Source: Escherichia phage LorandFenyves_Bas91. Taken from it: a DNA stretch of 64,000 bases. Of this stretch, positions 1,735 through 54,250 are shown piece after piece. The notes under the pieces are model-generated. The model had not been told where the DNA came from and did not search any database. It was given only the letters and a program-made list of their open reading frames with translations. Where the stretch lies: sequence record PQ850614.1; one strand, given 5' to 3'. Each line of letters begins with the position of its first letter. The stretch's first letter is position 1. A program made the translations under genes and the position numbers.

Positions 1735-4700
1735 ATGGCGCTGTATCCAATAAAGTCGCTAGGTGCTGTAGGCGTTATCGCTGATCAGGCTCCGACAGAC
1801 TTAGCTCCTAATGCTTTCACTAATGCTATAAATGCTCGATTTGTTGAGCAGAGAGTATTTAAGACGGGGGGCAATGCCCCTCTTTCTTATGTAGACGAAG
1901 ATAAGGATTTAACCCCTCTGTCTTTCGTTTCTATGCCTTTCGATTATTATAGCGCAGGTAATAGCTTTCTTGTTGTAGGTACAGATAAGAAGTTATATAA
2001 ACTGACAGATGAAAGCTTGACTGATATTAGCCGTAAGGTTGCTACAGTCACCAAGAAGGCTTCTGCCTCAATTAAGATTTATCCAGTTGTTTCTCAGATC
2101 GTTCCTAAAGAATCAACTATCTCAATGAACTTCAATCAGACCAAGAATCTAGAGGTTTCTCTTCTCCCTGCCGATGCTAACAATACTGATCTTATTTGGG
2201 AGGTTAGTAATTCATCCTATGGAAGTGTTACGGTAGACCCTAGTGACTCCAAACTTGCTACTCTAACATCTTTTGAGAAAGAGGGTAATCTTGTAGTAAC
2301 TATCTCTACTGCCAATGAATCCGTAGTGGCTCAGATTGCTGTTAATATCATCGATGGTGATTCAGGCATCTTCTTGAGTCAAGATACTGTTACAATTCGT
2401 AAAGGAGGGACTACTACTCTCACGGCTGTTACTGGCAAAACCCCTGTAACTTGGTCCAGCAATAACGCTTCTATTGTATCTGTAACCCCTAACGCCAACT
2501 CTTTAACTGCTGTCATTACAGCGAATGGAGAAGGTAATGTAACAATCACTGCTGATAACGGGACTAAGACTGCTTCTTGTGAGATTGTTTCTATCCCTCA
2601 GATTGATAGTATCTCTTTAAGCCAGTCAGATGTTACTGTGAGTAGAGGTTCTCAGTATATTTTAACTGCCACCCTTTCTCCTGCTAACGCCCCTAATCAA
2701 AACATTACTTGGACCTCTTCTAACCCAAATATTGCAACAGTATCAGGGACTAGCACACAAGGGACAGTAAATGCTTTACTTGCTGGCTTTACTGAGATTA
2801 CAGCTACCACTGAAGAAGGTAATAGAGTTGCTGTCTGTACTGTACGTGTAGATTTAGCTGGAAGGACAATGAGAACAAGTGCTATGGCATTTGCTGCTCC
2901 TGTATCAGAGTCGGTAGAAACTCAAGATGAGGAAGTAGTAACTCCTCCTGAAAGTGAGGAAGTTGTTTATTTTGCTGAGCCTACATCTGGTATAGATACG
3001 TCAGGGATGTATGAAGGTAATAACTTCTATGACTACTCTAACGTGAATGATATTGAAGGTTTTGCAAGAGCTTCTTTACTGGCAACCCCTTTGTCATCTG
3101 TAACCTTAGATATTGTCAGCGCTTCTCTTGATGTTGGTGAAGAGATTGTCATTACAGCCACAGCTTCTCCAGAAGGTGAGTACTCTTATCAGTGGTCTGT
3201 TGATAAAACTGGTTATGTTTCTACAACTTCAGTTACTGGTAAATCTATCAAACTGGTTGCTCTTCGTAAAGGAGATATTAACGTAACATGTACTGTCAGT
3301 CAGATGACTCAGAAAGATTACGATGCTTTTGATGACTATCCTTGGTATCACGCTGTTATCTCTAACTGTGCAGTTGCTACAACTCACTATGAAACTCCTC
3401 AGGTAAAAGAATTCGAATCAGAATACTTTGTAGACCTTCCGGGGTGGGGTGAGCAAACAGTTGTTGATAATGATGGAAACCCTTCAGTCAAGAAGTTTAA
3501 CTGGAAATGTGAGAGAGTGAGATCTTTTAACAACCGTCTTTTTGCCCTGAATATGAGAGAGGCTAATGCTTCTGGTGTTACCACTAACTACCCGCTTCGT
3601 CTTCGTTGGTCTAACTTTGCCAATGAGAACAAGGCTCCTACACTGTGGGATGATTTTGCTTACGATCGTGTTGTGTCTTCGGACTTAGCTTCTAACATCG
3701 TAGGGCAGACTCAGGCTCTAGAGAATGGATATGCTGGTTACATTGATTTAGCTGACTCTAACGGCAGCTTGATTGATATCCTACCTCTTAAAGATTACTT
3801 GTTCGTTTATACAGAGTTTGAAACGTATATAGGTTCTCCGACTAATAACACGTACCAACCTCTAATGTTCAAGAAGCTCTTTAATGACTCTGGTATCCTT
3901 GCTCCTGAGTGTGTGGTTGAAGTAGAAGGTAGTCACTTCGTAGTTACTCAGAACGATGTAATCTTACACAATGGTGCAACCAAGAAGTCAATTGCATCTA
4001 ACCGTGTCAAGAACATGTTGATTAACGAGGTGTGTCTGGTTAACCCTCTAGCAACTCGAGTACACTTGCATCAGGATAAGAAAGAAGTTTGGGTTCTGTA
4101 CGTAGGTCCGGGAGAACCAAAAGAAAGCTTCGCTTGTACTAAAGCTGCTGTATGGAATTATGAGTTTGATACTTGGTCTTTCCGTACTATTCCATATGCT
4201 CAGTGTATCGGTCTTGTTGATCCTCCTGTTTTAGAAAGAGGTCCAATCTGGTCTGACTTCCAAGAAATCACTTGGGATGACCCATCTATTAAAGAACTTG
4301 TTTGGAGAAAGGATGCAACAAACTTCAGACAGAGGGTTACGATAGTAGGTTCGTTCTTGAGGGGATTCTATCAGGTGGATGTAGGTGCTCTTGACTATTT
4401 CTATGACAGGCTAAACGATGTTGTTATAGAGAAGCCTCTGGAAATGAGGTTGGAGAGGACTGGTATAGATTTTGATAATGTGACTAATGAGTGGAATCAG
4501 AAGCATATTAACAGGTTCCGGCCTCAGACAACCGGTTCAGGTATTTACATATTTGAAGCTGGTGGTAGTCAATTCTCAAATGAATATGGACACCCACACA
4601 CATCGAAGACTTATACAATTGGTGTTGACAGGCATGTCTCGGTGAGACTGAACCATCCATACCTTTTCTATAATGTTATAGATAATGATGTTAACAGTAA

Positions 4701-4795: not shown

Positions 4796-5764
4796 ATGGG
4801 TGCAGGTGGTTTTCGTAAGAATACTGGTCGCAACAACACCACACTCCCGTACAACGTTGGGTTTCTCAATAATGTACAGGACACAGAAACATATAACGTA
4901 GCCGTGTATGATGAATTACAAAAAGTTAGCACAGCTACTAACCAAATGTTCCAAGCTATAGATGAAATTCACGAAGAGATTGATGTTCGTATTAAAGCTC
5001 TTAATGCAATGAATCTACAATTTGATGAGCTTGAGAATAGAATTACTACAGAGATAGAAACAGCTATTGCAGATATCCAAACACAGATGGGGAATCTCTC
5101 CACTGAAGATATTTGGGATAATTCTGTTCAACCTCCTGTAAAATTAGAAAGCACTGTATCTGGCTTTAAAACAAGTATTGAGGGTAACACAACTAAGATT
5201 CAAACGGTAGAAGGTATTGTCAATGACCAAGGTCAAGAGATTGCTTTAGTTCAGACAGAGATTCAAAATATTAATGGAAGCCTATCTCAGTATATGAAGC
5301 TCTCTGAGTATGAAGCTACGTGGGGTGTTAACTCTACAGTAAACGGAAGATATGCTGGGGTCAAGTTAACTAACAACGGAACAAACAGTCAATTCCAAGT
5401 AACAGCTAACAAGTTTATTGTTGGTGATGGCAGCTCTGGTAACACACCTTTTGTGTTTGAGGGTGGTAGGGCTAGAATGGAATTCGCTGACATAAAGAAC
5501 GTCAATATCACAACAGCTCAGATTGCTAACGCTAGAATCCAATGGGCACAGATCGATAACGTATCCATCTCCAATGCTCAGATTCAGAACTTGTCAGCGG
5601 ATAAGATTACTGCTGGCTCTATGTGGGGTTCTAACTGGAGACTTACTGTTGGTGGGGACTTTGTTATGGGTGGCACAGGTGGGGCACAATTGTGGATGAA
5701 TGGTAACAGAATAGACTTCTACGATGGAAGTGGTGCTCTGAGAATCAGGATAGGGAGTTGGTAA
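4796..5764 (+). CDS. tail fibre / host-specificity protein (lambda J C-terminal-like segment)
   Basis: Start moved from the track's 4730 to ATG 4796 (GGAGGA RBS, downstream of the terminator hairpin). N-terminal coiled coil. Segment 'FQVTANKFIVGD...PFVFEGGRARMEFADIKNVNITTAQIANARIQWAQIDNVSISNAQI' resembles host-specificity fibre tips. Confidence 0.75.
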   Translation: MGAGGFRKNTGRNNTTLPYNVGFLNNVQDTETYNVAVYDELQKVSTATNQMFQAIDEIHEEIDVRIKALNAMNLQFDELENRITTEIETAIADIQTQMGNLSTEDIWDNSVQPPVKLESTVSGFKTSIEGNTTKIQTVEGIVNDQGQEIALVQTEIQNINGSLSQYMKLSEYEATWGVNSTVNGRYAGVKLTNNGTNSQFQVTANKFIVGDGSSGNTPFVFEGGRARMEFADIKNVNITTAQIANARIQWAQIDNVSISNAQIQNLSADKITAGSMWGSNWRLTVGGDFVMGGTGGAQLWMNGNRIDFYDGSGALRIRIGSW

Positions 5765-5765
5765 T

Positions 5766-6797
5766 ATGGCATACGGAATATGGACACAACCAGTAGGGCC
5801 GGGGCCAGCAACCCCCGCTCCCTTATTTATTGATAGCGGAAGCACTTTCCCTCAGTTCAAGAATAGTATAAGAGGGAGTTTTAACTTTAATGGGGCTGGG
5901 AGATCTTTCCCTATTAGTGGATGGGATGGCAGTGGTCAGATAGTTATTGTTCCTACCGGTTCTTTATGCTGGCAATGGGAAGTCCCTCCTAACCTAGTTC
6001 CTGATGTTTATTGTGTGAATAATATCTACGTAGAAAACAGTTCCTCTTTTAGAGTTACTCTGAATCAGAACCCCGGCAGTAACCCCTTATTTGACTGTGG
6101 GTTCAACGTATATCAAATATGGCCTAGAGCGGATAGGAATTACGGAATTACCTTTTCTAACACAGCAGACTACTTCTCGATATCTGATAGTGGGGTCGTC
6201 GGTCAATGTATTTGGGCTTGGCAGGGGACCATAAACAATGCCCTTCAGATACCAAATATCGGTGGGTTCAATATGACCAATGCTGTTGTGTTTGCTAATT
6301 GGTCTGATGGAGGGATAGGACTATCTTATACCTCTGATGACAGGGTTATTCGTGTTTATCAGAACAGACCTTACATAAACGGCAACACTAACGAGGGTGG
6401 TTCTGTGTTTGCTAGAGTTGCAGTATTCTGCAATGGAGCAGGAGTTCCGGAACATAATGGAGGTTTGAATATTTATTCTCCGGGTACCACGCAATGTGTC
6501 TTCTCTACTAACAGAACACCTTTCACTGTGGATACTTTTATAGGCTCAGGAGGCGGTAACACTGGAATGGCATACCCTATGATACCTCTTACCTCTGGAA
6601 TAGGTGCGATAAAAGGCCAAGGCAGTGGATGGAGATATCAGCAAATGAGATCTCACACCATGAGTGGTTCTACGATAGGAACGGGCTATGGAAGGTATTT
6701 ATTTCAGTGGGATCAGAATTACGACCTAGGAGCTGATACTGTAGTTAATTTATCAGTTCCTGTAATAAATGCAGCTAAGGTTTTTGCTGGACTATAA
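5766..6797 (+). CDS. structural protein, possibly distal fibre/receptor-binding; function unknown
   Basis: 343-aa ORF abutting the fibre gene with GGGAG RBS. Gly/Asn/Ser-rich, beta-type composition. Confidence 0.6.
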   Translation: MAYGIWTQPVGPGPATPAPLFIDSGSTFPQFKNSIRGSFNFNGAGRSFPISGWDGSGQIVIVPTGSLCWQWEVPPNLVPDVYCVNNIYVENSSSFRVTLNQNPGSNPLFDCGFNVYQIWPRADRNYGITFSNTADYFSISDSGVVGQCIWAWQGTINNALQIPNIGGFNMTNAVVFANWSDGGIGLSYTSDDRVIRVYQNRPYINGNTNEGGSVFARVAVFCNGAGVPEHNGGLNIYSPGTTQCVFSTNRTPFTVDTFIGSGGGNTGMAYPMIPLTSGIGAIKGQGSGWRYQQMRSHTMSGSTIGTGYGRYLFQWDQNYDLGADTVVNLSVPVINAAKVFAGL

Positions 6798-6809
6798 CAA
6801 GGAGATATT

Positions 6810-8676: not shown

Positions 8677-9645
8677 ATGGGACTTTTCGGAGGAGGGGGT
8701 AGTAAAACTACTTCCCAAATGATTCGCCCTGAATACATTCAACAGTATATTGACCAGCTTAACCAGCAGATCGGTAATACTAGTTCAGGAGATTATGTTT
8801 ATCGAGATAATGTAGGGTTTAATAATAATCAGACAGAGGCACTTAATAACCTAGCACAATCTGGCGCTTTGGGCACGCTCTCACAGCAATATATGGATGC
8901 AGCAGGTCAAGGCTTGGGCTATCTAGATAATGCCTATAAAGGCTATCAGAGCCTCTCTGGACAAGGTGGGATTACTGGAGAACAGATTGGTGCTCTCGCT
9001 GGTCAACTGTATGATGATGACGCTGTGCAAGCAGCCATTACAGCTAATAATGAACAGGTTCAACAAAACTTGGCACGTAATGCTCTTCCTCAGTTAGCTC
9101 AACAGTTTGCTGGTCAACAAGGTTCAGGTGCTCGTATGGCTAAGTCTTTTGCCCAAGGCGATGCTCTGAATCAGATGCAGGGCCAAGCAACAGATATCAC
9201 CAATAGTGCCTATAACTCGGCTATTAGCCAAGCTGAAAGCATCCTCTCTGGTAATAGACAGAATCAGGCAGCTGCTCTCTCTGGTCTTTCTAATATTGGT
9301 TCTAACCTTTCTAACCTAGGTCAGCAGGGTGCTAATTTGTCTCAACAGCAAATAATGAATCAATGGAATGCAGGGTTGCAGCAACAACAGCAACAACAGA
9401 ATGAATATGATAATGCCTACCAGAATGCTCAGAACGCAGCTAATTGGGGATGGCAAGATATCAATAACCAACTCGGTGCAGCAGGTGTACTTAACGGTGC
9501 TCTCGGACAAACTACAACTACTAAAACATCTGGTGGCAAAGGTGGTTTCCTTGGTGGAGCTATGAGTGGTGCAGCAGCTGGCTCTTCCTTTGGACCTTGG
9601 GGTGCATTAGCTGGGGGTGTAATCGGTGGGTTGGCTAGTACTTAA
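8677..9645 (+). CDS. Q/N/G-rich internal virion protein (paralog B)
   Basis: 322 aa with AAGGAG RBS. N-terminus MGLFGGGGSKTT...GFNNNQTEALNNLA parallels 7612..8664. Contains a QQQQQQQ run and a Gly-rich hydrophobic C-terminus. Confidence 0.7.
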   Translation: MGLFGGGGSKTTSQMIRPEYIQQYIDQLNQQIGNTSSGDYVYRDNVGFNNNQTEALNNLAQSGALGTLSQQYMDAAGQGLGYLDNAYKGYQSLSGQGGITGEQIGALAGQLYDDDAVQAAITANNEQVQQNLARNALPQLAQQFAGQQGSGARMAKSFAQGDALNQMQGQATDITNSAYNSAISQAESILSGNRQNQAAALSGLSNIGSNLSNLGQQGANLSQQQIMNQWNAGLQQQQQQQNEYDNAYQNAQNAANWGWQDINNQLGAAGVLNGALGQTTTTKTSGGKGGFLGGAMSGAAAGSSFGPWGALAGGVIGGLAST

Positions 9646-21699: not shown

Positions 21700-22153
21700 A
21701 TTCCACTCTATTTTTAGTTGCTTCTTCTAAAGTATCAAAAGACCCTAAGTACTTAGTTCTACCCTTAATTGAGATGTTTGATATGTATTTACCCTTTCTG
21801 TTTAGATAAACACCTTTTACACCAGAGGTGTTATTAATGTTCAACCCTTTATTCCAAGAGTTTACTTCATTATTAACTTCCCTTAGATTAGAGATAGAGT
21901 CATTTGAAGGGTTTCTATCAATATGGTCTATCTGATCTTCAGGTAAATAACCCTTAGCAGAGTACCAAATCACATGATACCTGTACACTTGATGGCCTTT
22001 AATCCTTATCAGGCATCTTCCGTCTTTTCTGATAGACCCTACTTCCATTCCTTTCCTACATTTTGTCCCGTTATGAACCTTCCAGAAAACTTTCCCAGAA
22101 GATAAATCACAATCAAAATATTTGTCAAGGAGTTCCTCTATCATATCAAACAT
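21671..22153 (-). CDS. HNH homing endonuclease with AP2-type DNA-binding domain
   Basis: HVIWY...DQIDHIDRNPSNDSISNLREV (HNH_3-like), then SGVKGVYLNRKGKYISNISIKGRTKYLGSFDTLEEA (AP2-like). Confidence 0.8.
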   Translation of the reverse strand: MFDMIEELLDKYFDCDLSSGKVFWKVHNGTKCRKGMEVGSIRKDGRCLIRIKGHQVYRYHVIWYSAKGYLPEDQIDHIDRNPSNDSISNLREVNNEVNSWNKGLNINNTSGVKGVYLNRKGKYISNISIKGRTKYLGSFDTLEEATKNRVEYERKYTSEL

Positions 22154-48086: not shown

Positions 48087-48203
48087 TTATTTAGCTACCT
48101 TTTTCTGTCCGTTTACGAACCAGATAATTGAACCGTCAGGCTGTCGTTGACCGAAGCCTTTCTGGTTAATCATATCGTCATAAGAATATGCTTTACGTCT
48201 CAT
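48087..48203 (-). CDS. small ORF (38 aa), hypothetical
   Basis: ATGA overlap with the stop of 48200..48460. Confidence 0.35.
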   Translation of the reverse strand: MRRKAYSYDDMINQKGFGQRQPDGSIIWFVNGQKKVAK

Positions 48204-48460
48204 TTGTTTTCCTGTGGAGTTAAGATAATTTCAGCTTTACTAAACTTCTCACCAACAACCATATCACCAGAGATGACACGCAGTTCTCCAGTGCCTAAGT
48301 TAACAGCTCCAGCAGGTTGACAGCCCCTGCTCTTAGCTGTAAGCATATAAATCTTTTGATCCTTACATTCTTGGAGTGTGAATACGTCAGCCATGCTTAG
48401 GTCTTTAACATGGAGGATTATTTCCTCCTTGCTTTTAACTTTAATGTGAATAGTGCTCAT
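48200..48460 (-). CDS. small beta-rich protein, 8-member paralog family
   Basis: Family pattern L..(G/A)D.F ... hydrophobic strand ... (V/C).NL..G. Here: LSMADVFTL...GAVNLGTGEL. Confidence 0.65.
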   Translation of the reverse strand: MSTIHIKVKSKEEIILHVKDLSMADVFTLQECKDQKIYMLTAKSRGCQPAGAVNLGTGELRVISGDMVVGEKFSKAEIILTPQENK

Positions 48461-48462
48461 GA

Positions 48463-48708
48463 TTACTCCTGAACCACTGACATACGAATCACTTCAACTG
48501 GGGCATCACTTTTCATAACACCTAATACACCAGTAAGAAGATTAACTGTCGTAATCCAACCATCTTCTACAGAGATTTTGTTGGACACATTATTGACACG
48601 GATGTAATACTGAGGGGATGCCGTTCCTCTCTGAACTACGAAAGGGTTTCCGGGAATAATTGTAGCCAGTGAAACCGTGTTATCTTTAATCTTTGGGATG
48701 ATCTTCAT
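48463..48708 (-). CDS. small beta-rich protein, 8-member paralog family
   Basis: IIPGNPFVV...ITTVNLLTGVL. Confidence 0.65.
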   Translation of the reverse strand: MKIIPKIKDNTVSLATIIPGNPFVVQRGTASPQYYIRVNNVSNKISVEDGWITTVNLLTGVLGVMKSDAPVEVIRMSVVQE

Positions 48709-48959
48709 TTAGAGTCCTTAATAACGTTAGCTTCAACCTTAACAGGAATAACAGAGATACCCTCTACCGGAGCACTTAGGAATCCATCTTCTAGATTGAC
48801 ACACACAACTCGATCTCGTGCAACTTCTACCCAATCAGTGCATTCCGCAGTACAAACCATATGCACTACACCGTCTTCTTTCAATCTAAAGGTATCACCC
48901 TTCTTCAGAGTGCGGAGCTTTGCCGTCTTGATGGTTTTGTTCAACTCGTTAACTTTCAT
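48705..48959 (-). CDS. small beta-rich protein, 8-member paralog family
   Basis: LKKGDTFRL...VVCVNLEDGFL. Confidence 0.65.
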   Translation of the reverse strand: MKVNELNKTIKTAKLRTLKKGDTFRLKEDGVVHMVCTAECTDWVEVARDRVVCVNLEDGFLSAPVEGISVIPVKVEANVIKDSK

Positions 48960-48967
48960 ATTGATTC

Positions 48968-49279
48968 CTATTTAAGTTTGAGGCTAATATTAAGGTGCAT
49001 ACATGCCCTGTTCTGTACAGCAGCATAACTTCTACCGAGCATGTCAGCCATTCTCTGAATAGACATGAACCCAGCATTACGGATAAGGAACTGGTCTTCT
49101 TCTTCAGACCACTTAACTCGGATTGAAGCTCTTGATATTCCGAACTTAGTGCAAGCTGTGTTAACAGCATTCTCCGTTACATTCATAATCTGAGCAACTT
49201 CTTGAACCGAGTACTCTTTGATCAATCTCCGAAGATTTTCAATCTGCATCGGAGTCCATATAGTTCTTCGTGCTTTCAT
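48968..49279 (-). CDS. DNA-binding protein with two Myb/SANT-like HTH repeats
   Basis: Start moved to ATG 49279 (GGAGGA RBS). Repeats WTPMQIENLRRLIKEYSVQEVAQIMNVTENAV and WSEEEDQFLIRNAGFMSIQRMADMLGRSYAAV. Confidence 0.6.
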   Translation of the reverse strand: MKARRTIWTPMQIENLRRLIKEYSVQEVAQIMNVTENAVNTACTKFGISRASIRVKWSEEEDQFLIRNAGFMSIQRMADMLGRSYAAVQNRACMHLNISLKLK

Positions 49280-49330
49280 ACATCCTCCAATTAAACATTT
49301 ATATAAGACTTGCTTAGATAAAGATTCAAT

Positions 49331-49358
49331 AAAATAGGGGGAGGGGACGAATCCTCCC
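49331..49358 (-). terminator. intrinsic terminator closing the structured ORF-free tract
   Basis: Minus strand GGGAGG-attcgtcc-CCTCCC followed by CCTATTTTATT. Confidence 0.5.
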
Positions 49359-49378
49359 ATATCCTATTAATTAAGTTT

Positions 49379-49503
49379 GCATGTAAGATCTAACAATCGG
49401 TTGCCTTTGTAGGAATAGGTGTAAAGCCAATCCAGCACTAAACTCCCGCCCCCTTAGTGGGCTGGGTTATTAAAGGGTAACGCCCTTATGGGCTAGTTAC
49501 ATG
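49379..49503 (-). ncRNA. candidate structured RNA (unclassified)
   Basis: A long-range 7-bp helix CATGTAA/TTACATG encloses ~110 nt. Inside is a 10-bp bulged hairpin (49431-49465) and short GC hairpins. No ORF. A terminator lies downstream. Confidence 0.35.
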
Positions 49504-49569
49504 AATGTTAGTTTGATAGGAGATCTGAAGTCCTATCTCAAAGGACTCTCGTAAGAATCCTTCACGATA

Positions 49570-49701
49570 TTACTTATTCATTTTTCGTCGGCTATCTCTC
49601 CAAGCCAACCAAGTGTAGGTTTTCAACTCTTCTAAACTTTCTGGAGTGAATAGGTATTCTTTGAAGGTGTCACTAAACCACTCTAAAAATTCTTCAGTCA
49701 T
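49570..49701 (-). CDS. small ORF (43 aa), hypothetical
   Basis: Below the track threshold. MTEEFLEWFSDTFKEYLF... Weak RBS. Confidence 0.35.
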   Translation of the reverse strand: MTEEFLEWFSDTFKEYLFTPESLEELKTYTWLAWRDSRRKMNK

Positions 49702-49710
49702 AATAACATC

Positions 49711-49956
49711 TCATTTCTTAGGTAGAATAATATCCCACAGCCATGCCCACAAAATAAGTGATATAAAAATCACAGCAATGATGGGCCATAGAAAAACTAT
49801 AATTGCTATCTTTGATAAGTTTGGTTCGTTATCCCACCCTCTGAACTCGATACTGCCCTTTACATCAAGATATCTTACCAGAGCTGAAACTATCACAATA
49901 CCTATCAGGTAAACAATCAAGACACTAACAGGACTGATCACAAGGTTGATCTCCAC
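49711..49956 (-). CDS. two-TMD membrane protein (start uncertain)
   Basis: ISPVSVLIVYLIGIVIVSALV and IAIIVFLWPIIAVIFISLILWAWLW. The GTG start lies inside the upstream Cys-rich ORF, and later GTG/TTG starts are possible. Confidence 0.55.
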   Translation of the reverse strand: MEINLVISPVSVLIVYLIGIVIVSALVRYLDVKGSIEFRGWDNEPNLSKIAIIVFLWPIIAVIFISLILWAWLWDIILPKK

Positions 49957-50098
49957 ATGTTTTACAAATCACTGGTGAATAACTACAGGCAGGATATACT
50001 GACACACCATCAAACGTTTCACACCTACAATCAGGGCACTCACCATTGGATTCCATGTCATCATCATCATACACTTCTCCACCACCATAACAGCTCAT
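49925..50098 (-). CDS. Cys-rich small protein (57 aa, 12 Cys)
   Basis: Below the track threshold. TAAGGAG RBS 5 nt before ATG. ...ECPDCRCE...ICKTCGDQPCDQSC. Confidence 0.55.
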   Translation of the reverse strand: MSCYGGGEVYDDDDMESNGECPDCRCETFDGVSVYPACSYSPVICKTCGDQPCDQSC

Positions 50099-50107
50099 AT
50101 GAACTCC

Positions 50108-50329
50108 TTAGTAAACTAAACCTATAGCCTTTGCATCAGGCTGAGGGACTACTTTTGCACTAGGGCGATAGCCATCCACTGAGCCATTCCAAAGATTGAC
50201 ACAGGTGATATACCCATCGTTCAAGTAGTCTGTTTTAATCCAGAAGTGTTTATCATGACCAAAAATACTTCCGTTTGGCAGAGTGGACAGCTCAACGGTT
50301 TTAAGCGACTGCTTAGAGTCTAGTTTCAT
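50108..50329 (-). CDS. small beta-rich protein, 8-member paralog family
   Basis: LPNGSIFGHDKHFWIKTD...ITCVNLWNGSV. Confidence 0.65.
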   Translation of the reverse strand: MKLDSKQSLKTVELSTLPNGSIFGHDKHFWIKTDYLNDGYITCVNLWNGSVDGYRPSAKVVPQPDAKAIGLVY

Positions 50330-50336
50330 AATAACC

Positions 50337-50585
50337 TCAATTATCGTAGCATGTATTCCAATACATGTAGTTAACGTACGTTCTCGGTTTGATTCCGTAC
50401 ATGATGAAGTGAGTCTTCTTAATCCTTTCCTTCAGCGTGTAATAAAGGCCATCACTGAAGTTACCAATCTTTACTTGGAAGCGTAAGGAGCGAGCATCCA
50501 TTCGAAGCATAGAGATTAGCTGTACCCTACTACCTCCAGCCATCTCTTCAAGAAGCTTCTTTGTATTCCAATAATGAGCTGTCAT
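50337..50585 (-). CDS. hypothetical protein (82 aa)
   Basis: Track ORF. Confidence 0.55.
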   Translation of the reverse strand: MTAHYWNTKKLLEEMAGGSRVQLISMLRMDARSLRFQVKIGNFSDGLYYTLKERIKKTHFIMYGIKPRTYVNYMYWNTCYDN

Positions 50586-50586
50586 A

Positions 50587-50868
50587 TTACCACTCCTTAC
50601 CGGTTGTTGTTACAGAACCACCACACCACTGCGCATCGGATAAGGTTTTAGTCTCCTCATCTACTGCTGCACCATTCAGGCATGAGATACCACTGTAACG
50701 CATATCAATTTCACCAGAAGGAACCTTCTCGCCCTTATGCCAGCGAGAAACACAAACACCTTCCACTGCTACTGCACACCATCCATCAGGACGGCTCTGT
50801 ACGCAGCCTGTAAGGGCCACACAGACAAGGAAGATACAGATTAAGGATATTACACCACCCCAACTCAT
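50587..50868 (-). CDS. lipoprotein (93 aa)
   Basis: Signal peptide with lipobox: ICIFLVCVALTGC. Confidence 0.65.
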   Translation of the reverse strand: MSWGGVISLICIFLVCVALTGCVQSRPDGWCAVAVEGVCVSRWHKGEKVPSGEIDMRYSGISCLNGAAVDEETKTLSDAQWCGGSVTTTGKEW

Positions 50869-50887
50869 AACTACCTCCTATTTGATT

Positions 50888-51002
50888 TGGTGGACTATCT
50901 GGAATCGAACCAGAAGCTCACTAAGAAAGTAATTCCCACTGTTATAAAAGCACTTGCCTCAACAGGGATACACTAACTCTGGTGCCGTACCCATACTAGC
51001 CC
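50888..51002 (-). other. 115-nt tRNA-like element (acceptor, D-arm-like and T-arm present; no canonical anticodon arm found by eye)
   Basis: 3' end TCTGG-TTCGATT-CCAGA + TAGTCCACCA. The 5' GGGCTA pairs with TAGTCC. It lies 11 nt downstream of tRNA-Arg on the same strand. The central ~64 nt does not fit a cloverleaf. Confidence 0.3.
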
Positions 51003-51013
51003 TTGTTTAAAAT

Positions 51014-51089
51014 TGGTCGGGACGGAAGGATTCGAACCCTCGTAAGGCGAGTTAGAAGCTCGCTGCCTGTTCCACTAGACTACGCCCCG
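51014..51089 (-). tRNA. tRNA-Arg(UCU): tRNA-Arg (anticodon UCU), CCA encoded
   Basis: Hand-folded 76-nt cloverleaf. Acceptor CGGGGCG/CGTCCCG. Anticodon arm GCGAG-CTTCTAA-CTCGC. T-arm GAGGG-TTCGAAT-CCTTC. Discriminator A + CCA. Confidence 0.85.
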
Positions 51090-51502
51090 ATAGATTTGAA
51101 ACCGTTATACTTACCTGCACATGATCTGTTACAAAAAGAATTTGCATATTTAACATTTCGCTTTTCTTTTTCAAAAGATCTTCCACAATAAGAGCAAACA
51201 ACTGAAATCATTGTTCTTCCAGTAGTTGCTTCTAATGTTGACTTCTTTCTGTGATTTTCTATGGAAAGTATCTGAAGATTAGATATGTCATCATTAGTTT
51301 TATTTCTGTCAATATGATCAACCTCCTCGTCTTCAGTTAGGTACCTGCCTATGTGACAAGACATTAAATATCTTGCGTAAGAAATGGTTGTCCTCTCCGT
51401 GTCGGTATTATACAAATCAACACGCTTCCTACCATCTCTGCTTGTTCTTAAGTAGCCCAATCGCCAGTCATTAACGAAGGGGTATTCTAACTCTATCTTC
51501 AA
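51080..51502 (-). CDS. HNH homing endonuclease
   Basis: EEVDHIDRNKTNDDISNLQILSIENHRKK plus a C-terminal CSYCG...CNRSC zinc motif. The last 10 nt overlap the tRNA 5' end. Confidence 0.8.
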   Translation of the reverse strand: MKIELEYPFVNDWRLGYLRTSRDGRKRVDLYNTDTERTTISYARYLMSCHIGRYLTEDEEVDHIDRNKTNDDISNLQILSIENHRKKSTLEATTGRTMISVVCSYCGRSFEKEKRNVKYANSFCNRSCAGKYNGFKSIGA

Positions 51503-51536
51503 AACCCCTCCATTGAGCTAAGGGTGCTGAGTTTGT

Positions 51537-51746
51537 TTAACTAAAGATACGCAAGGCCACATCGTGACCGATATGACCGGGAACTTTATGCTGTTCTATT
51601 TTCAAACAGCGCTTACAGACACGAGATACACGAGACTCTTTTCTCTCGACTGGAGTGTCTTTAGCGTGAGTGATTTGAAGGTTTTCAGTGATCACCCACT
51701 CGTGTTTACATCCAGAATCTTCGGGCTTTTTCTTACGAAAGAACAT
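51537..51746 (-). CDS. small Zn-ribbon protein (H-x-W...CxxC family)
   Basis: Start moved to ATG 51746 (AAGGGG RBS). CKHEW...CKRC. Confidence 0.55.
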   Translation of the reverse strand: MFFRKKKPEDSGCKHEWVITENLQITHAKDTPVERKESRVSRVCKRCLKIEQHKVPGHIGHDVALRIFS

Positions 51747-51754
51747 AACACCCC

Positions 51755-51919
51755 TTAGATCAGATCTGTTTTCTTGTGCAGACCACAAACTTTACAGCGA
51801 GAGTAGATACGCAACCCTTGTCGCTCTCTGTCAGTAAGTTTATTTGTGATCGTCAGTTCATAAGTAGAAAGATCTTCCCACTCATGGAAATGAAAGAAGC
51901 GTTTGAACCATTTGATCAT
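51755..51919 (-). CDS. small Zn-ribbon protein (H-x-W...CxxCG family, 54 aa)
   Basis: Below the track threshold. MIKWFKRFFHFHEW...CKVCG is a clear paralog of 51929..52090. Confidence 0.55.
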   Translation of the reverse strand: MIKWFKRFFHFHEWEDLSTYELTITNKLTDRERQGLRIYSRCKVCGLHKKTDLI

Positions 51920-51928
51920 AATGATTCC

Positions 51929-52090
51929 TTAGATTACATCACGATGACTAACATCACCACACACCTTACACTGAATAACGTAACGTGTGCCCTTGTCATT
52001 ATTCCCATCTGAATCTGTATAGACCAGAGGGCGAGTATCAATAATCTTCCAATCATGACAATGAAAGACACGCTTTAGCCACTTGAACAT
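51929..52090 (-). CDS. small Zn-ribbon protein (H-x-W...CxxCG family, 53 aa)
   Basis: Start moved to ATG 52090 (GAGGT RBS). MFKWLKRVFHCHDW...CKVCG. Confidence 0.55.
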   Translation of the reverse strand: MFKWLKRVFHCHDWKIIDTRPLVYTDSDGNNDKGTRYVIQCKVCGDVSHRDVI

Positions 52091-52097
52091 ATTAACC

Positions 52098-52349
52098 TCA
52101 AGCACAAGCAGGGAGTGTGATGATCTTATACTTACCATCAAACTCTCCAAATAAACCTAAGAATGTAGGACTGTAAGTACCAGTACAAACAAACTCATCA
52201 AACAATGCGTTATAGCTAGGCTTAATCTTCCAAGCCCATACATAACCCATCTTGTCAATTGCAATGTAACGAGTGTTCAGAGGAACAGTCATTATTACAC
52301 CATCAACTTCGATCACTTTAGTTATTGGTGCAGCTTGAAAGTTTTTCAT
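52098..52349 (-). CDS. hypothetical protein (83 aa)
   Basis: Track ORF with an ATGA overlap with the upstream small ORF. Confidence 0.55.
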   Translation of the reverse strand: MKNFQAAPITKVIEVDGVIMTVPLNTRYIAIDKMGYVWAWKIKPSYNALFDEFVCTGTYSPTFLGLFGEFDGKYKIITLPACA

Positions 52350-52522
52350 ACTTTACCTTTAATGAAAATGTCATTACCACATACACAGCATGAACGAACA
52401 ACAGTAGCGCCGCGCTGAACGATACGAACCTCTTCTTTAACCAGATTGACACGAGCACTACAACAAGGAGAGTTAACATAAGAGTAACCAGCTTGTGTAT
52501 TCTTGATTGTTTGCTTAGACAT
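52346..52522 (-). CDS. small Zn-ribbon protein (58 aa)
   Basis: Below the track threshold. AAGAGGAA RBS after a terminator. SPCCSA...SCCVCG. Confidence 0.5.
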   Translation of the reverse strand: MSKQTIKNTQAGYSYVNSPCCSARVNLVKEEVRIVQRGATVVRSCCVCGNDIFIKGKV

Positions 52523-52565
52523 TTGAGCTTCCTCTTGTTAGTTTAAGTAAGAGCTGACCCTTAAT

Positions 52566-52597
52566 TAAAACAACAAAGGCCGCCCGAAGGCAGCCTC
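52566..52597 (-). terminator. intrinsic terminator
   Basis: Minus strand AGGCTGCC-ttcg-GGCGGCCT followed by TTGTTGTTTT. Confidence 0.6.
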
Positions 52598-52600
52598 TCT

Positions 52601-52810
52601 TTATTGACTAACACCACGAATCAGATGATTCTGTAGCATTTCATCTTCTGCATTATACAGGAATGCAAACATCAACTCCTTAGCCACATCTCTTGAGCAA
52701 TTAAGACACTTAGAGATTTGCGTTAGTTGCATGTTGCGTTCTGTGTGTTCCATCAAGGCAATGCGAATGATCTCTCGCATACCTATCACATGGGTTGTCT
52801 TAACCGGCAT
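52601..52810 (-). CDS. small HTH-like protein (69 aa)
   Basis: Start moved to ATG 52810. MQLTQISKCLNCSRDVAKELMFAF resembles an HTH. The track start 52852 would overlap the upstream small ORF. Confidence 0.5.
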   Translation of the reverse strand: MPVKTTHVIGMREIIRIALMEHTERNMQLTQISKCLNCSRDVAKELMFAFLYNAEDEMLQNHLIRGVSQ

Positions 52811-52940
52811 AGGTCCAATTGCCTTGTTTGTTACGGATGGCTGACATTGCATGAATCCAGAAGCCTTCCAGTTTCAGAGCACCATTAGCTACTGCATCCA
52901 TACGTTCAGGGCGGTTCATACGTTTGGTTGATACTTTCAT
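52800..52940 (-). CDS. small ORF (46 aa), hypothetical
   Basis: Below the track threshold. GAGAGATAGG RBS. MKVSTKRMNRPERMDAVANGALKLEGFW... Confidence 0.4.
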   Translation of the reverse strand: MKVSTKRMNRPERMDAVANGALKLEGFWIHAMSAIRNKQGNWTYAG

Positions 52941-53183
52941 ACCTATCTCTCTTTGTTAGTGGAGGCATTATTGCCAGTTGATATAAGGGATAGCCCTAGT
53001 CAGTAGACTAATCCTGACCGCGTACTCATTGCCGACCTTCTCTGCCTAAGAGTTCAGGTTCTAGAGCTATCTCTTATTCCAACTGGTGAAGACTCCCTAC
53101 CCCTAGGAAGTCTCCTGAATCCCAAACCAATACGTACCCCTACATATCGGAAAGTCTTTCGAAAATTAACAGGTTTTAGTCTA

Positions 53184-53219
53184 ACACCGGATGTTCGAGC
53201 AAGCTCTCCCTAGCGGTGT
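53184..53219 (-). other. conserved stem-loop element, copy 2
   Basis: Minus strand ACACCG-CTAGGGAGAG-cttg-CTCGAACATC-CGGTGT. The outer helix sequence differs from copy 1, but pairing is kept. Confidence 0.5.
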
Positions 53220-53261
53220 GGCATATGCCTGAATTAATAAGTTAATGAGGAACACCCTCAC

Positions 53262-53289
53262 ATAGCCCTCTGATAAACACAAGGGCTAT
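53262..53289 (-). other. ATAGCCCT/AGGGCTAT hairpin after the gene stop (module copy 2)
   Basis: 8-bp stem 10 nt after the stop of 53299..53517. Confidence 0.5.
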
Positions 53290-53298
53290 AAGTCGGTG

Positions 53299-53517
53299 TT
53301 ACTTTTGGGATAAACACAGATCAGGGCGTGGCATAACAGTGGTTGATAGACCGAAAACTTCAACAGAACCACTATTCAGATTAGCGGCCTTGCACAAACC
53401 ATCAGGAGTTTTATCTTCTAACATTAGCCAGAAACGTCTATCGTAGGAGAAAACATCACCACTTTTAACATCTTCTGCATTTGCATATTTAGGATAATCA
53501 ACTACTTTAATTTCCAT
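53299..53517 (-). CDS. small beta-rich protein, 8-member paralog family
   Basis: VKSGDVFSYDRRFWLMLE...LCKAANLNSGSV. Confidence 0.65.
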   Translation of the reverse strand: MEIKVVDYPKYANAEDVKSGDVFSYDRRFWLMLEDKTPDGLCKAANLNSGSVEVFGLSTTVMPRPDLCLSQK

Positions 53518-53527
53518 CTACTTACCC

Positions 53528-53746
53528 TTATTGGTTGATGGTTAGGTGAACTAGCTTATTCACATGAGCGAAGTTAGGTAGGATTTGCATTTCATTATTG
53601 AAGATATTAAAACAACGAACCCCGCCCTCTACAGCATAAGCAGATTTCTGAAACAGACTACCTCCCCACACAAATACATCATGTGTTTCAAGAGATCGTA
53701 ACTGAACAGCCTCGTCAACAACCTTCTTTTCAATGTTCATAATCAC
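53528..53746 (-). CDS. small beta-rich protein, 8-member paralog family
   Basis: LETHDVFVWGGSLFQKS...VRCFNIFNNEM. Confidence 0.6.
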   Translation of the reverse strand: MIMNIEKKVVDEAVQLRSLETHDVFVWGGSLFQKSAYAVEGGVRCFNIFNNEMQILPNFAHVNKLVHLTINQ

Positions 53747-53997
53747 TTCCGATTAGTAATAACAACGTCATGAAGAAGAACAACCTTGCTTTTCGAGCTG
53801 AGCTTAAGGACTTGCTTGTTTGTTAGACTAAGGACGACACAACCACCATCAGAAGGCTTAGTCTCCTCGACCTGCGATCTAAACAGGTGAACAACCATGT
53901 AGAAATCTGCTCGTGTTTCCCTGATTTGGAATACATCTCCAAGTTTGAGATCACCAACACACAAAGACGGTTCATTTACTTCAAGATTAATCTTCAT
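53743..53997 (-). CDS. small beta-rich protein, 8-member paralog family
   Basis: LKLGDVFQIRETRADFYMVV...GGCVVLSLTNKQV. Confidence 0.65.
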   Translation of the reverse strand: MKINLEVNEPSLCVGDLKLGDVFQIRETRADFYMVVHLFRSQVEETKPSDGGCVVLSLTNKQVLKLSSKSKVVLLHDVVITNRK

Positions 53998-54250
53998 CTT
54001 TAACCTCTACCTCTACGTTGGTTATGTGGAGATCGTTACGAACTTGGCAGACCTCATTTCGGTTAATAGGGACAAGCTTTCCATAGACCACATCAACGCA
54101 TTTAACATGATAATCAGATGTTGAGTCTGTTCTGATATAGAGTTTTTCTCGGAAAGAAAACAAAACTCCCGGCCTCATGTTATTTAAACGAAGGTGATGG
54201 CCTGTTTCTTGGATATTAACTTTCACTGTTGATCTCCTGCTGTTTAGCAA
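53987..54250 (-). CDS. small beta-rich protein, 8-member paralog family
   Basis: MRPGVLFSFREKLYIRTD...VKCVDVVYGKL. Confidence 0.65.
   Translation of the reverse strand: MLNSRRSTVKVNIQETGHHLRLNNMRPGVLFSFREKLYIRTDSTSDYHVKCVDVVYGKLVPINRNEVCQVRNDLHITNVEVEVKDED

Follow-up and report, generated by a model that had tools for sequence, protein, structure and literature searches.

The stretch of DNA analysed here (64,000 nucleotides from Escherichia phage LorandFenyves_Bas91, sequence record PQ850614.1; referred to below as the window) carries eight small open reading frames (ORFs), which we designate by their lower coordinates as 48200, 48463, 48705, 50108, 53299, 53528, 53743 and 53987. Profile comparisons confirm that all eight belong to one homologous family, and the 50108 protein is confidently modelled as an SH3-like small β-barrel. 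The family extends well beyond this phage, and its copies are accessory early genes. The reading that we favour for its function, with a probability that we place slightly below even, is that these proteins are non-lethal binders that modulate the host or counter its defences.

The eight proteins are homologous

The original prediction was of an eight-member family built on one scaffold, and this is borne out by two types of profile search. In the first, each member was left out in turn from the profile. The omitted member was then top among the 323 ORFs of the window, with an expect value (E) of between 3e-3 and 9e-12, and scored above every non-member (best non-member E >= 0.007); the 48200 and 53743 members were found at E 2.9e-4 and 5e-6 respectively. 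The second and cleanest test used a profile constructed from 121 metagenomic relatives, with no Kuravirus sequences in it. This recovered exactly the eight ORFs, with E ranging from 2.4e-21 to 4.6e-10 (48200, 4.9e-11; 48463, 1.9e-13; 48705, 6.7e-15; 50108, 2.4e-21; 53299, 6.8e-16; 53528, 2.3e-10; 53743, 4.6e-10; 53987, 1.1e-14), and the ninth-ranked ORF of the window had an E of 0.39. The values are well beyond chance for all eight proteins.

Single-sequence searches with phmmer gave weak links among the members, except for 50108 and 53299 (E 1e-8). Each window protein matches its own PHROGs family at E 1e-23 to 1e-51, and the cross-matches to the families of the other members are collinear and full-length. 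Comparisons using hhalign place 50108 at the hub, with probabilities of 96.5% to 53299, 94.8% to 53987, 71% to 53528, 68% to 48705 and 53% to 48463. The weakest links are those of the 48200 and 53743 groups, and pairwise probabilities range from 96% down to less than 1%. There is no ninth member in the window at E<0.1. The best non-member in searches with the small family profile (E 0.007-0.3) is the ORF at 52346-52522 on the minus strand, which encodes a 58-residue protein with a CC...CxxC pattern and is the orthologue of phiEco32 gp110. It was rejected as a member, having an E of 5 with the deep profile.

Conservation was taken from an alignment of 129 family sequences. The most conserved columns are L17, G20 (97%), D21, F23 (100%), Y30, I/M31, K32, T33, C43, V44, N45, L46, G49 (96%) and V60 (93%), which are mainly hydrophobic or glycine/turn positions. 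The motif that was first noticed in the eight proteins coincides with these columns, as L17-x-x-G20-D21-x-F23, Y30-[IM]-K-T33 and C43-V44-N45-L46-x-T-G49.

Predicted structure

The structure of the 50108 member was predicted using AlphaFold2, with a predicted local distance difference test (pLDDT) score of 81.6. The model has five strands, which form a bent antiparallel barrel with structural matches to known barrels, and we are confident in describing the predicted fold as a five-stranded SH3-like (KOW/Tudor-like) small β-barrel. The beta-rich scaffold proposed from the sequences is supported. For the other seven members, the barrel is a predicted fold, assigned by homology.

A Foldseek search against BFVD returned uncharacterised proteins, about 60-90 residues long, of many cultured phages, including N4 Gp21 and PaP3 ORF.65; the matches were full-length, with template modelling (TM) scores of 0.7-0.88. 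The best structural neighbours are domain I of EF-P/eIF5A, the C-terminal domain of uL2 and the KOW domain of Spt5, which are RNA- or ribosome-associated barrels. These barrels of EF-P/eIF5A and uL2, together with Tudor, VapX, FeoA, the SH3-like domain of DtxR, the C-terminal domain of UvrD and CarD, are barrel-like systems that have no sequence relationship to the family. The family proteins stand alone and are not domains of larger proteins. EF-P has a loop carrying a modified lysine, where the family has a short, variable and often acidic loop. Homology to EF-P domain I was considered and rejected, the likeness being at the level of fold only: hhalign gave 0.3% against E. coli EF-P. The Pfam families KOW and EFP_N (PF00467 and PF08207) match none of the eight window proteins, and only one of the 129 family members matches EFP_N, at a sub-threshold E of 1.2e-3.

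The nature of these structural neighbours favours an alternative in which the proteins are small nucleic-acid-binding barrels of the KOW, Sm, cold-shock or Tudor-like type, acting on RNA or DNA of the phage or the host as chaperones, translational regulators or protectors of transcripts. The window members are neutral to basic (isoelectric point, pI, 4.9-9.2), which is consistent with such a role. However, the wider family has a median pI of 4.9 and 82% of it is net negative, the profile lacks a conserved basic patch, and the lack of a KOW or EFP_N signature and of an hhalign match to EF-P also counts against it. We consider this alternative to have a fairly small probability.

Size and distribution of the family

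When 1.84 billion representatives were searched exhaustively with a profile, 1,308 clusters (clustered at 50% identity) matched at E<=1e-3. Most of these are 65-90 residues long, stand alone and follow the consensus MKI...v.L..L..GDvF...g.YikTd....cVNL.tG......V.Pv.A.lvi. Among the 144 distant representatives listed, 15 have a length of 110-175 residues and two matched stretches each, and six are longer than 175 residues, five of them with four to six matched stretches. The two-stretch and repeat proteins fit a modular binding domain. Several family-like repeats each are present in the giant proteins P0125, P0136, P0164 and P0196 (478-3,223 residues). P0125 (contig positions 5001-14672) comes from a phage-like contig that has long ORFs on both strands and in several frames, and P0164 has a SprT-like protease domain together with five family-like repeats.

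The family was not recognised when first noticed, and 129 sampled members likewise have no significant match in Pfam, NCBIfam, PADLOC or the PDB sequences; Pfam-A, NCBIfam and PADLOC served as a proxy for known anti-defence and defence families, and no dedicated anti-defence library was searched. In PHROGs, the family is split over approximately nine families, all labelled 'unknown function'. The window proteins match phrogs 6570, 7832, 8365, 7431, 16423, 12612, 9955 and 33163, and between 85 and 122 of the 129 aligned members match phrogs 6570, 7832, 8365, 7431 and 16423. PHROGs covers the family almost wholly through families that also hold Kuravirus proteins. Its separate unannotated families are here joined as a single superfamily that includes about 1,300 metagenomic clusters.

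Among cultured phages, the family profile matches N4 gp21 (E 6e-18), LUZ24 gp7 (E 7e-12), PaP3 ORF.65 (E 5e-10) and gp110, gp112, gp131 and gp133 of Salmonella phage 7-11 (E 2e-12 to 2e-4). These are hypothetical proteins of the same length as the family, with which they align collinearly, and they occur in 1-4 copies, compared to 8-9 in most Kuraviruses. An initial result that the family was limited to Kuravirus among cultured phages, which came from tblastn with 40 concatenated distant members, was overturned by these matches. In LUZ24, an unannotated ORF of 72 residues at 5115-5333 (plus strand), between gp13 and gp14, matches at E 1.9e-4 and may be a second member. PaP3 gp70.1, a 131-residue RpoS binder, was considered as a two-domain member and rejected, because it has no profile match; only ORF.65 matches in this phage.

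The metagenomic contexts examined are all phage-like, and include both lytic and temperate phages. In a lytic-type contig, two adjacent members immediately follow a phage sigma factor; three adjacent members occur in temperate siphophages that have an integrase and an S24 repressor; and a low-GC gut prophage-like contig with a member has a serine recombinase, RecT, YqaJ and a Lin1244-like gene. In two member-carrying metagenomic phage contigs, an Acb2/Tad1-hairpin gene or a Lar restriction-alleviation gene lies within about 1-5 kb of the member. This proximity of counter-defence-type genes (positions 5580-5981 and 3392-3778 of the two contigs) is suggestive, and amounts to two cases.

A strict degenerate DNA motif (MKI...GDVF...YIKT) gave no matches in 185,579 bacterial and archaeal genomes, three in IMG/VR and 15 in metagenomes, with 13 of the 18 being true members; the motif covers a narrow slice of the family, and its absence from bacterial and archaeal genomes is weak evidence. 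Searches for related loci with the single proteins P0181 and P0132 gave no matches, two family alignments contained no stretch of 7-10 conserved columns for such a search, and a second word-index protein search yielded little more. The literature covered, which did not include the original phiEco32 paper, describes neither the family nor an array of paralogues in phiEco32-like phages.

Genomic setting and gene layout

The 6.5-kb region containing the eight ORFs is 97% identical to Escherichia phages vB_EcoP-CHD5UKE1 and vB_EcoP_SU10. It matches 106 phage records, nearly all of them Escherichia or Shigella phages, and the records listed belong to phiEco32-like, SU10-like and related phages (Kuravirus, Gordonclarkvirinae). 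In the window, which is a Kuravirus (phiEco32/SU10-like) genome, the structural genes are on the plus strand at approximately 0.4-15.8 kb and everything from approximately 16 to 61 kb is on the minus strand. The eight ORFs fall within the segment equivalent to SU10 coding sequences (CDS) 96-114 and phiEco32 gp95-115. SU10 CDS 69-125 are of the early class (PMC4281155). In phiEco32, transcription of the early genes by the host sigma-70 RNA polymerase begins at four promoters located where the cluster starts; this cluster is the most variable part of the genome and is described as "likely" to serve host takeover (PMC8948821). The eight ORFs lie in an accessory early-gene zone.

All eight are on the minus strand at the positions originally given, and as originally described they form three clusters (of three, one and four genes), with an HNH gene and a tRNA gene among them. 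The first cluster starts with 48200..48460 (86 residues; phrog_12612), which is orthologous to phiEco32 gp95 and SU10 gp96 and is one of the two most divergent copies. It is followed by 48463..48708 (81 residues; phrog_7431; phiEco32 gp96, SU10 gp97), which in phage Bas94 adjoins a gene for a D5-like regulator, and by 48705..48959 (84 residues; phrog_7832), which has a 4-nt start/stop overlap with 48463-48708. The isolated gene is 50108..50329 (73 residues; phrog_6570; phiEco32 gp104, SU10 gp102), which is the family's hub and provided the sequence for modelling. The third cluster consists of 53299..53517 (72 residues; phrog_6570), which is 100% identical to phiEco32 gp113; 53528..53740 (70 residues from ATG 53740; phrog_33163), which is absent from phiEco32 and SU10; 53743..53997 (84 residues; phrog_9955), with 55% identity to phiEco32 gp114 and 94% to SU10 gp112; and 53987..54226 (79 residues from GTG 54226; phrog_16423), with about 62% identity to phiEco32 gp115.

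Two start codons were revised in the light of ribosome-binding sites and alignments of orthologues: the most likely start is GTG 54226 (MKVN..., with AGGAG 7 nt upstream), not TTG 54250, for the 53987 ORF, and ATG 53740 (MNIE...) for the 53528 ORF. A Shine-Dalgarno-like motif precedes each of the eight starts. Adjacent family genes in the runs of three and four either overlap by 4-11 nt or are separated by gaps of 1-10 nt, and these tightly packed, partly overlapping genes are probably co-translated. None of the eight proteins has a transmembrane-like or signal-like segment (maximum KD19 <= 1.06).

The HNH endonuclease ORF (51080-51502, minus strand, 140 residues) borders on tRNA-Arg(TCT) at 51014-51089, with a slight overlap. 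The corresponding site of phiEco32 and SU10 lacks such an ORF, suggesting that a homing endonuclease was inserted here. An Rfam scan of 46-58 kb found the tRNA only. Three consecutive small ORFs on the minus strand (51537-51788, 51755-51919 and 51929-52150) share the pattern W[FL]KR.FH.H.W ... CK.CG and look like a second, zinc-ribbon-like mini-family. Of these, only 51755-51919 matches phiEco32/SU10, and weakly (about 44%).

Evolution and copy number

Most non-family genes in the window have 95-100% protein identity to phiEco32, with a few other early genes being divergent (44-89%). For the family members, taken in order from 48200 to 53987, the identities are 84, 68, 26 (a different allele), 93 and 100%, then one absent, then 55 and 62%. 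Nei-Gojobori ratios of nonsynonymous to synonymous substitution (dN/dS) are 0.12-0.32 for the family orthologues and 0.06-0.30 for neighbouring non-family controls. The synonymous divergence (dS) of the family orthologues is high, at 0.2-1.2, and is saturated in one pair. The ratios indicate purifying selection, and the divergence does not arise from relaxed or positive selection.

For each copy in the window, between 3 and 52 of the 121 distant metagenomic representatives outscore all seven of its genome-mates, with the caveat that the best matches of 53299 (P0121 and P0123) may be Kuravirus-like orthologues. As judged from these comparisons of sequence, the paralogues appear to be ancient lineages that have been kept under purifying selection, and not a recent fast-evolving array. 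Where the window differs from phiEco32 and SU10, alleles seem to have been replaced and copies gained or lost, with no sign of fast evolution in situ, and the resulting picture is one of copies being exchanged, gained and lost between related phages by recombination. The family had been described as a rapidly diversifying arsenal. The accessory zone and the eight copies of one scaffold fit that description, but the rapid diversification does not, since dN/dS is in the range of the controls and the changes are allele swaps, gains and losses of old lineages.

There are eight copies in the window, nine each in phiEco32 and SU10 (eight strong matches and one weak), four in Salmonella phage 7-11, one or two in LUZ24, one in N4, and one in Escherichia phage ManiMatter_Bas94, a Kuravirus of 69.8 kb. 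The range within Gordonclarkvirinae is from 1 to 9. The weak ninth member is phiEco32 gp109/SU10 gp107 (74 residues; GDVF...YMKV...AICINN; E ~1e-4), and it is cleanly missing from the window, between the orthologues of gp108 and gp110 (junction 52346-52349); the gp109/gp107 genes occupy 21857-22081 and 6580-6804 of the two loci that carry them. In Bas94 the only member in the whole early region is the orthologue of 48463, at 8977-9222. The copies are accessory and individually dispensable. That most of them can be dispensed with is supported by Bas94, a related Kuravirus that keeps just one.

The gene layout is compatible with adjacent paralogues being the subunits of one hetero-oligomeric assembly, instead of eight independent effectors. 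The close packing within the runs of three and four points this way, as do other phages with two or three adjacent paralogues and, by Rosetta-stone logic, the 15 proteins with two matched stretches. SH3-like barrels such as Sm and Hfq often oligomerise. Against this, related phages have anything from 1 to 9 copies, there is a single copy in N4, in PaP3 and at most gut-metagenome loci, and positions are swapped or lost independently. A common assembly is rather unlikely.

Proposed function

On the favoured reading, the members would be soluble, cytoplasmic, single-domain proteins of about 70-86 residues that are made at the onset of infection and act as non-enzymatic binder modules. The core and turns of the barrel would be formed by the conserved residues. 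Through its variable surfaces and the loop joining strands 3 and 4, which also varies, each paralogue would have a partner of its own among the macromolecules of the host (or the phage). The proteins would then modulate the infected cell or disarm its defences without killing it. The idea of binder modules fits with the lack of a catalytic or known binding signature, a fold that is generic for binding to proteins and nucleic acids, early expression, dispensability, and occurrence in tandem, fused and repeated forms. Scans of Pfam, NCBIfam and PADLOC gave no signature of an enzyme or other domain. The original suggestion, of host-factor inhibitors or anti-defence proteins, is plausible.

The only experimental datum found for the family concerns LUZ24 gp7. 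This was one of 13 LUZ24 early proteins expressed in P. aeruginosa, of which only gp4 (Mip), gp6, gp9 and gp11 inhibited growth (PMC4635203). The result argues against a lethal host shut-off, and is silent either way on anti-defence. Gordonclarkvirinae are reported to be unusually resistant to restriction-modification and to all tested defence systems except Fun/Z, and have no known inhibitor (PMC11990801). This resistance would leave room for counter-defence genes, with DNA modification being an equally open explanation.

Several observations weigh against non-lethal binders with separate targets. The resistance of Gordonclarkvirinae to restriction-modification may stem from DNA modification instead (PMC11990801), and the lack of toxicity of LUZ24 gp7 in Pseudomonas may not transfer to the E. 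coli paralogues. The AlphaFold2 model of the 48200 member, made with only its own 13 orthologues in the alignment, is all-β but has a pLDDT of only 46. In addition, D21, Y30, K32, T33 and N45 are polar or aromatic and yet are conserved across the family. From the alternation of residues along the strands, some of them probably face outward, and conserved residues that are exposed would suggest a common ligand or partner, and not diversified targets.

A further alternative is that the proteins are accessory factors of RNA polymerase or transcription, being Tudor-like barrels that dock in the manner of CarD, the RID of Mfd or the C-terminal domain of UvrD. The fold matches to these are no better than to dozens of unrelated barrels, the links to neighbouring genes are inconsistent across phages, and the phiEco32 factors described as acting on the host RNA polymerase are gp36 and gp79 (PMC8948821, PMC12276001). 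We consider it improbable. Of these two factors, gp79 binds RNA polymerase and displaces sigma-70, while it stabilises gp36, the sigma factor of the phage (PMC12276001). Its orthologue in the window is at 37812-38060 (minus strand) and is 100% identical to phiEco32 gp79. Like the family proteins, gp79 is small (about 82 residues) and comes from the same phage group; it acts on the host. It is, however, a four-helix protein from a middle gene (PMC12276001; PMC8948821), and has no relation to the family in sequence or fold. A link between the two was thus rejected, gp79 being all-α and the product of another gene. The family profile matched no PDB chain at E<0.3, and did not match gp79.

That the genes encode virion or morphogenesis components, or are non-functional filler, is scarcely credible: no supporting point was found, the genes are in the early cluster, none of the 34 SU10 proteins identified by mass spectrometry of concentrated lysate is a member (PMC4281155), and junk ORFs are excluded by the dN/dS of 0.12-0.32 and by conservation across unrelated phage families.

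Host-modulating or counter-defence binders remain the favoured reading, and a bolder form of it may be considered, although it is unlikely. In this form, the family would be a phage-wide, stand-alone SH3-like binder scaffold that yields specific inhibitors or sponges of host immunity or of hub proteins, and the 8-9 copies in Kuraviruses would constitute a multi-target counter-defence battery. Adjacent copies would perhaps work as hetero-oligomers, as is hinted by the two-domain fusions.

Significance

The family is an uncharacterised member of a familiar class, that of small SH3-like phage early proteins, and the findings give no hint of a novel type of mechanism. What makes the family noteworthy is its size, the absence of curated annotation and its 8-9-fold presence in Kuraviruses. 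About nine separate PHROGs of unknown function and about 1,300 metagenomic clusters are joined into one definable domain family, which has members in genetically tractable phages (N4, LUZ24, phiEco32/SU10 and BASEL Bas86-94). The natural variation from one to nine copies within one phage subfamily is a ready comparison for phenotypes, with Bas94 as a natural low-copy comparator. If the proteins are not binders, they are still a candidate for a new Pfam/DUF entry. If they are counter-defence or host-modulating binders, they would form a large new family of effectors, and a multi-target battery, if true, would help to explain the resistance of Gordonclarkvirinae to nearly all of the defence systems tested.

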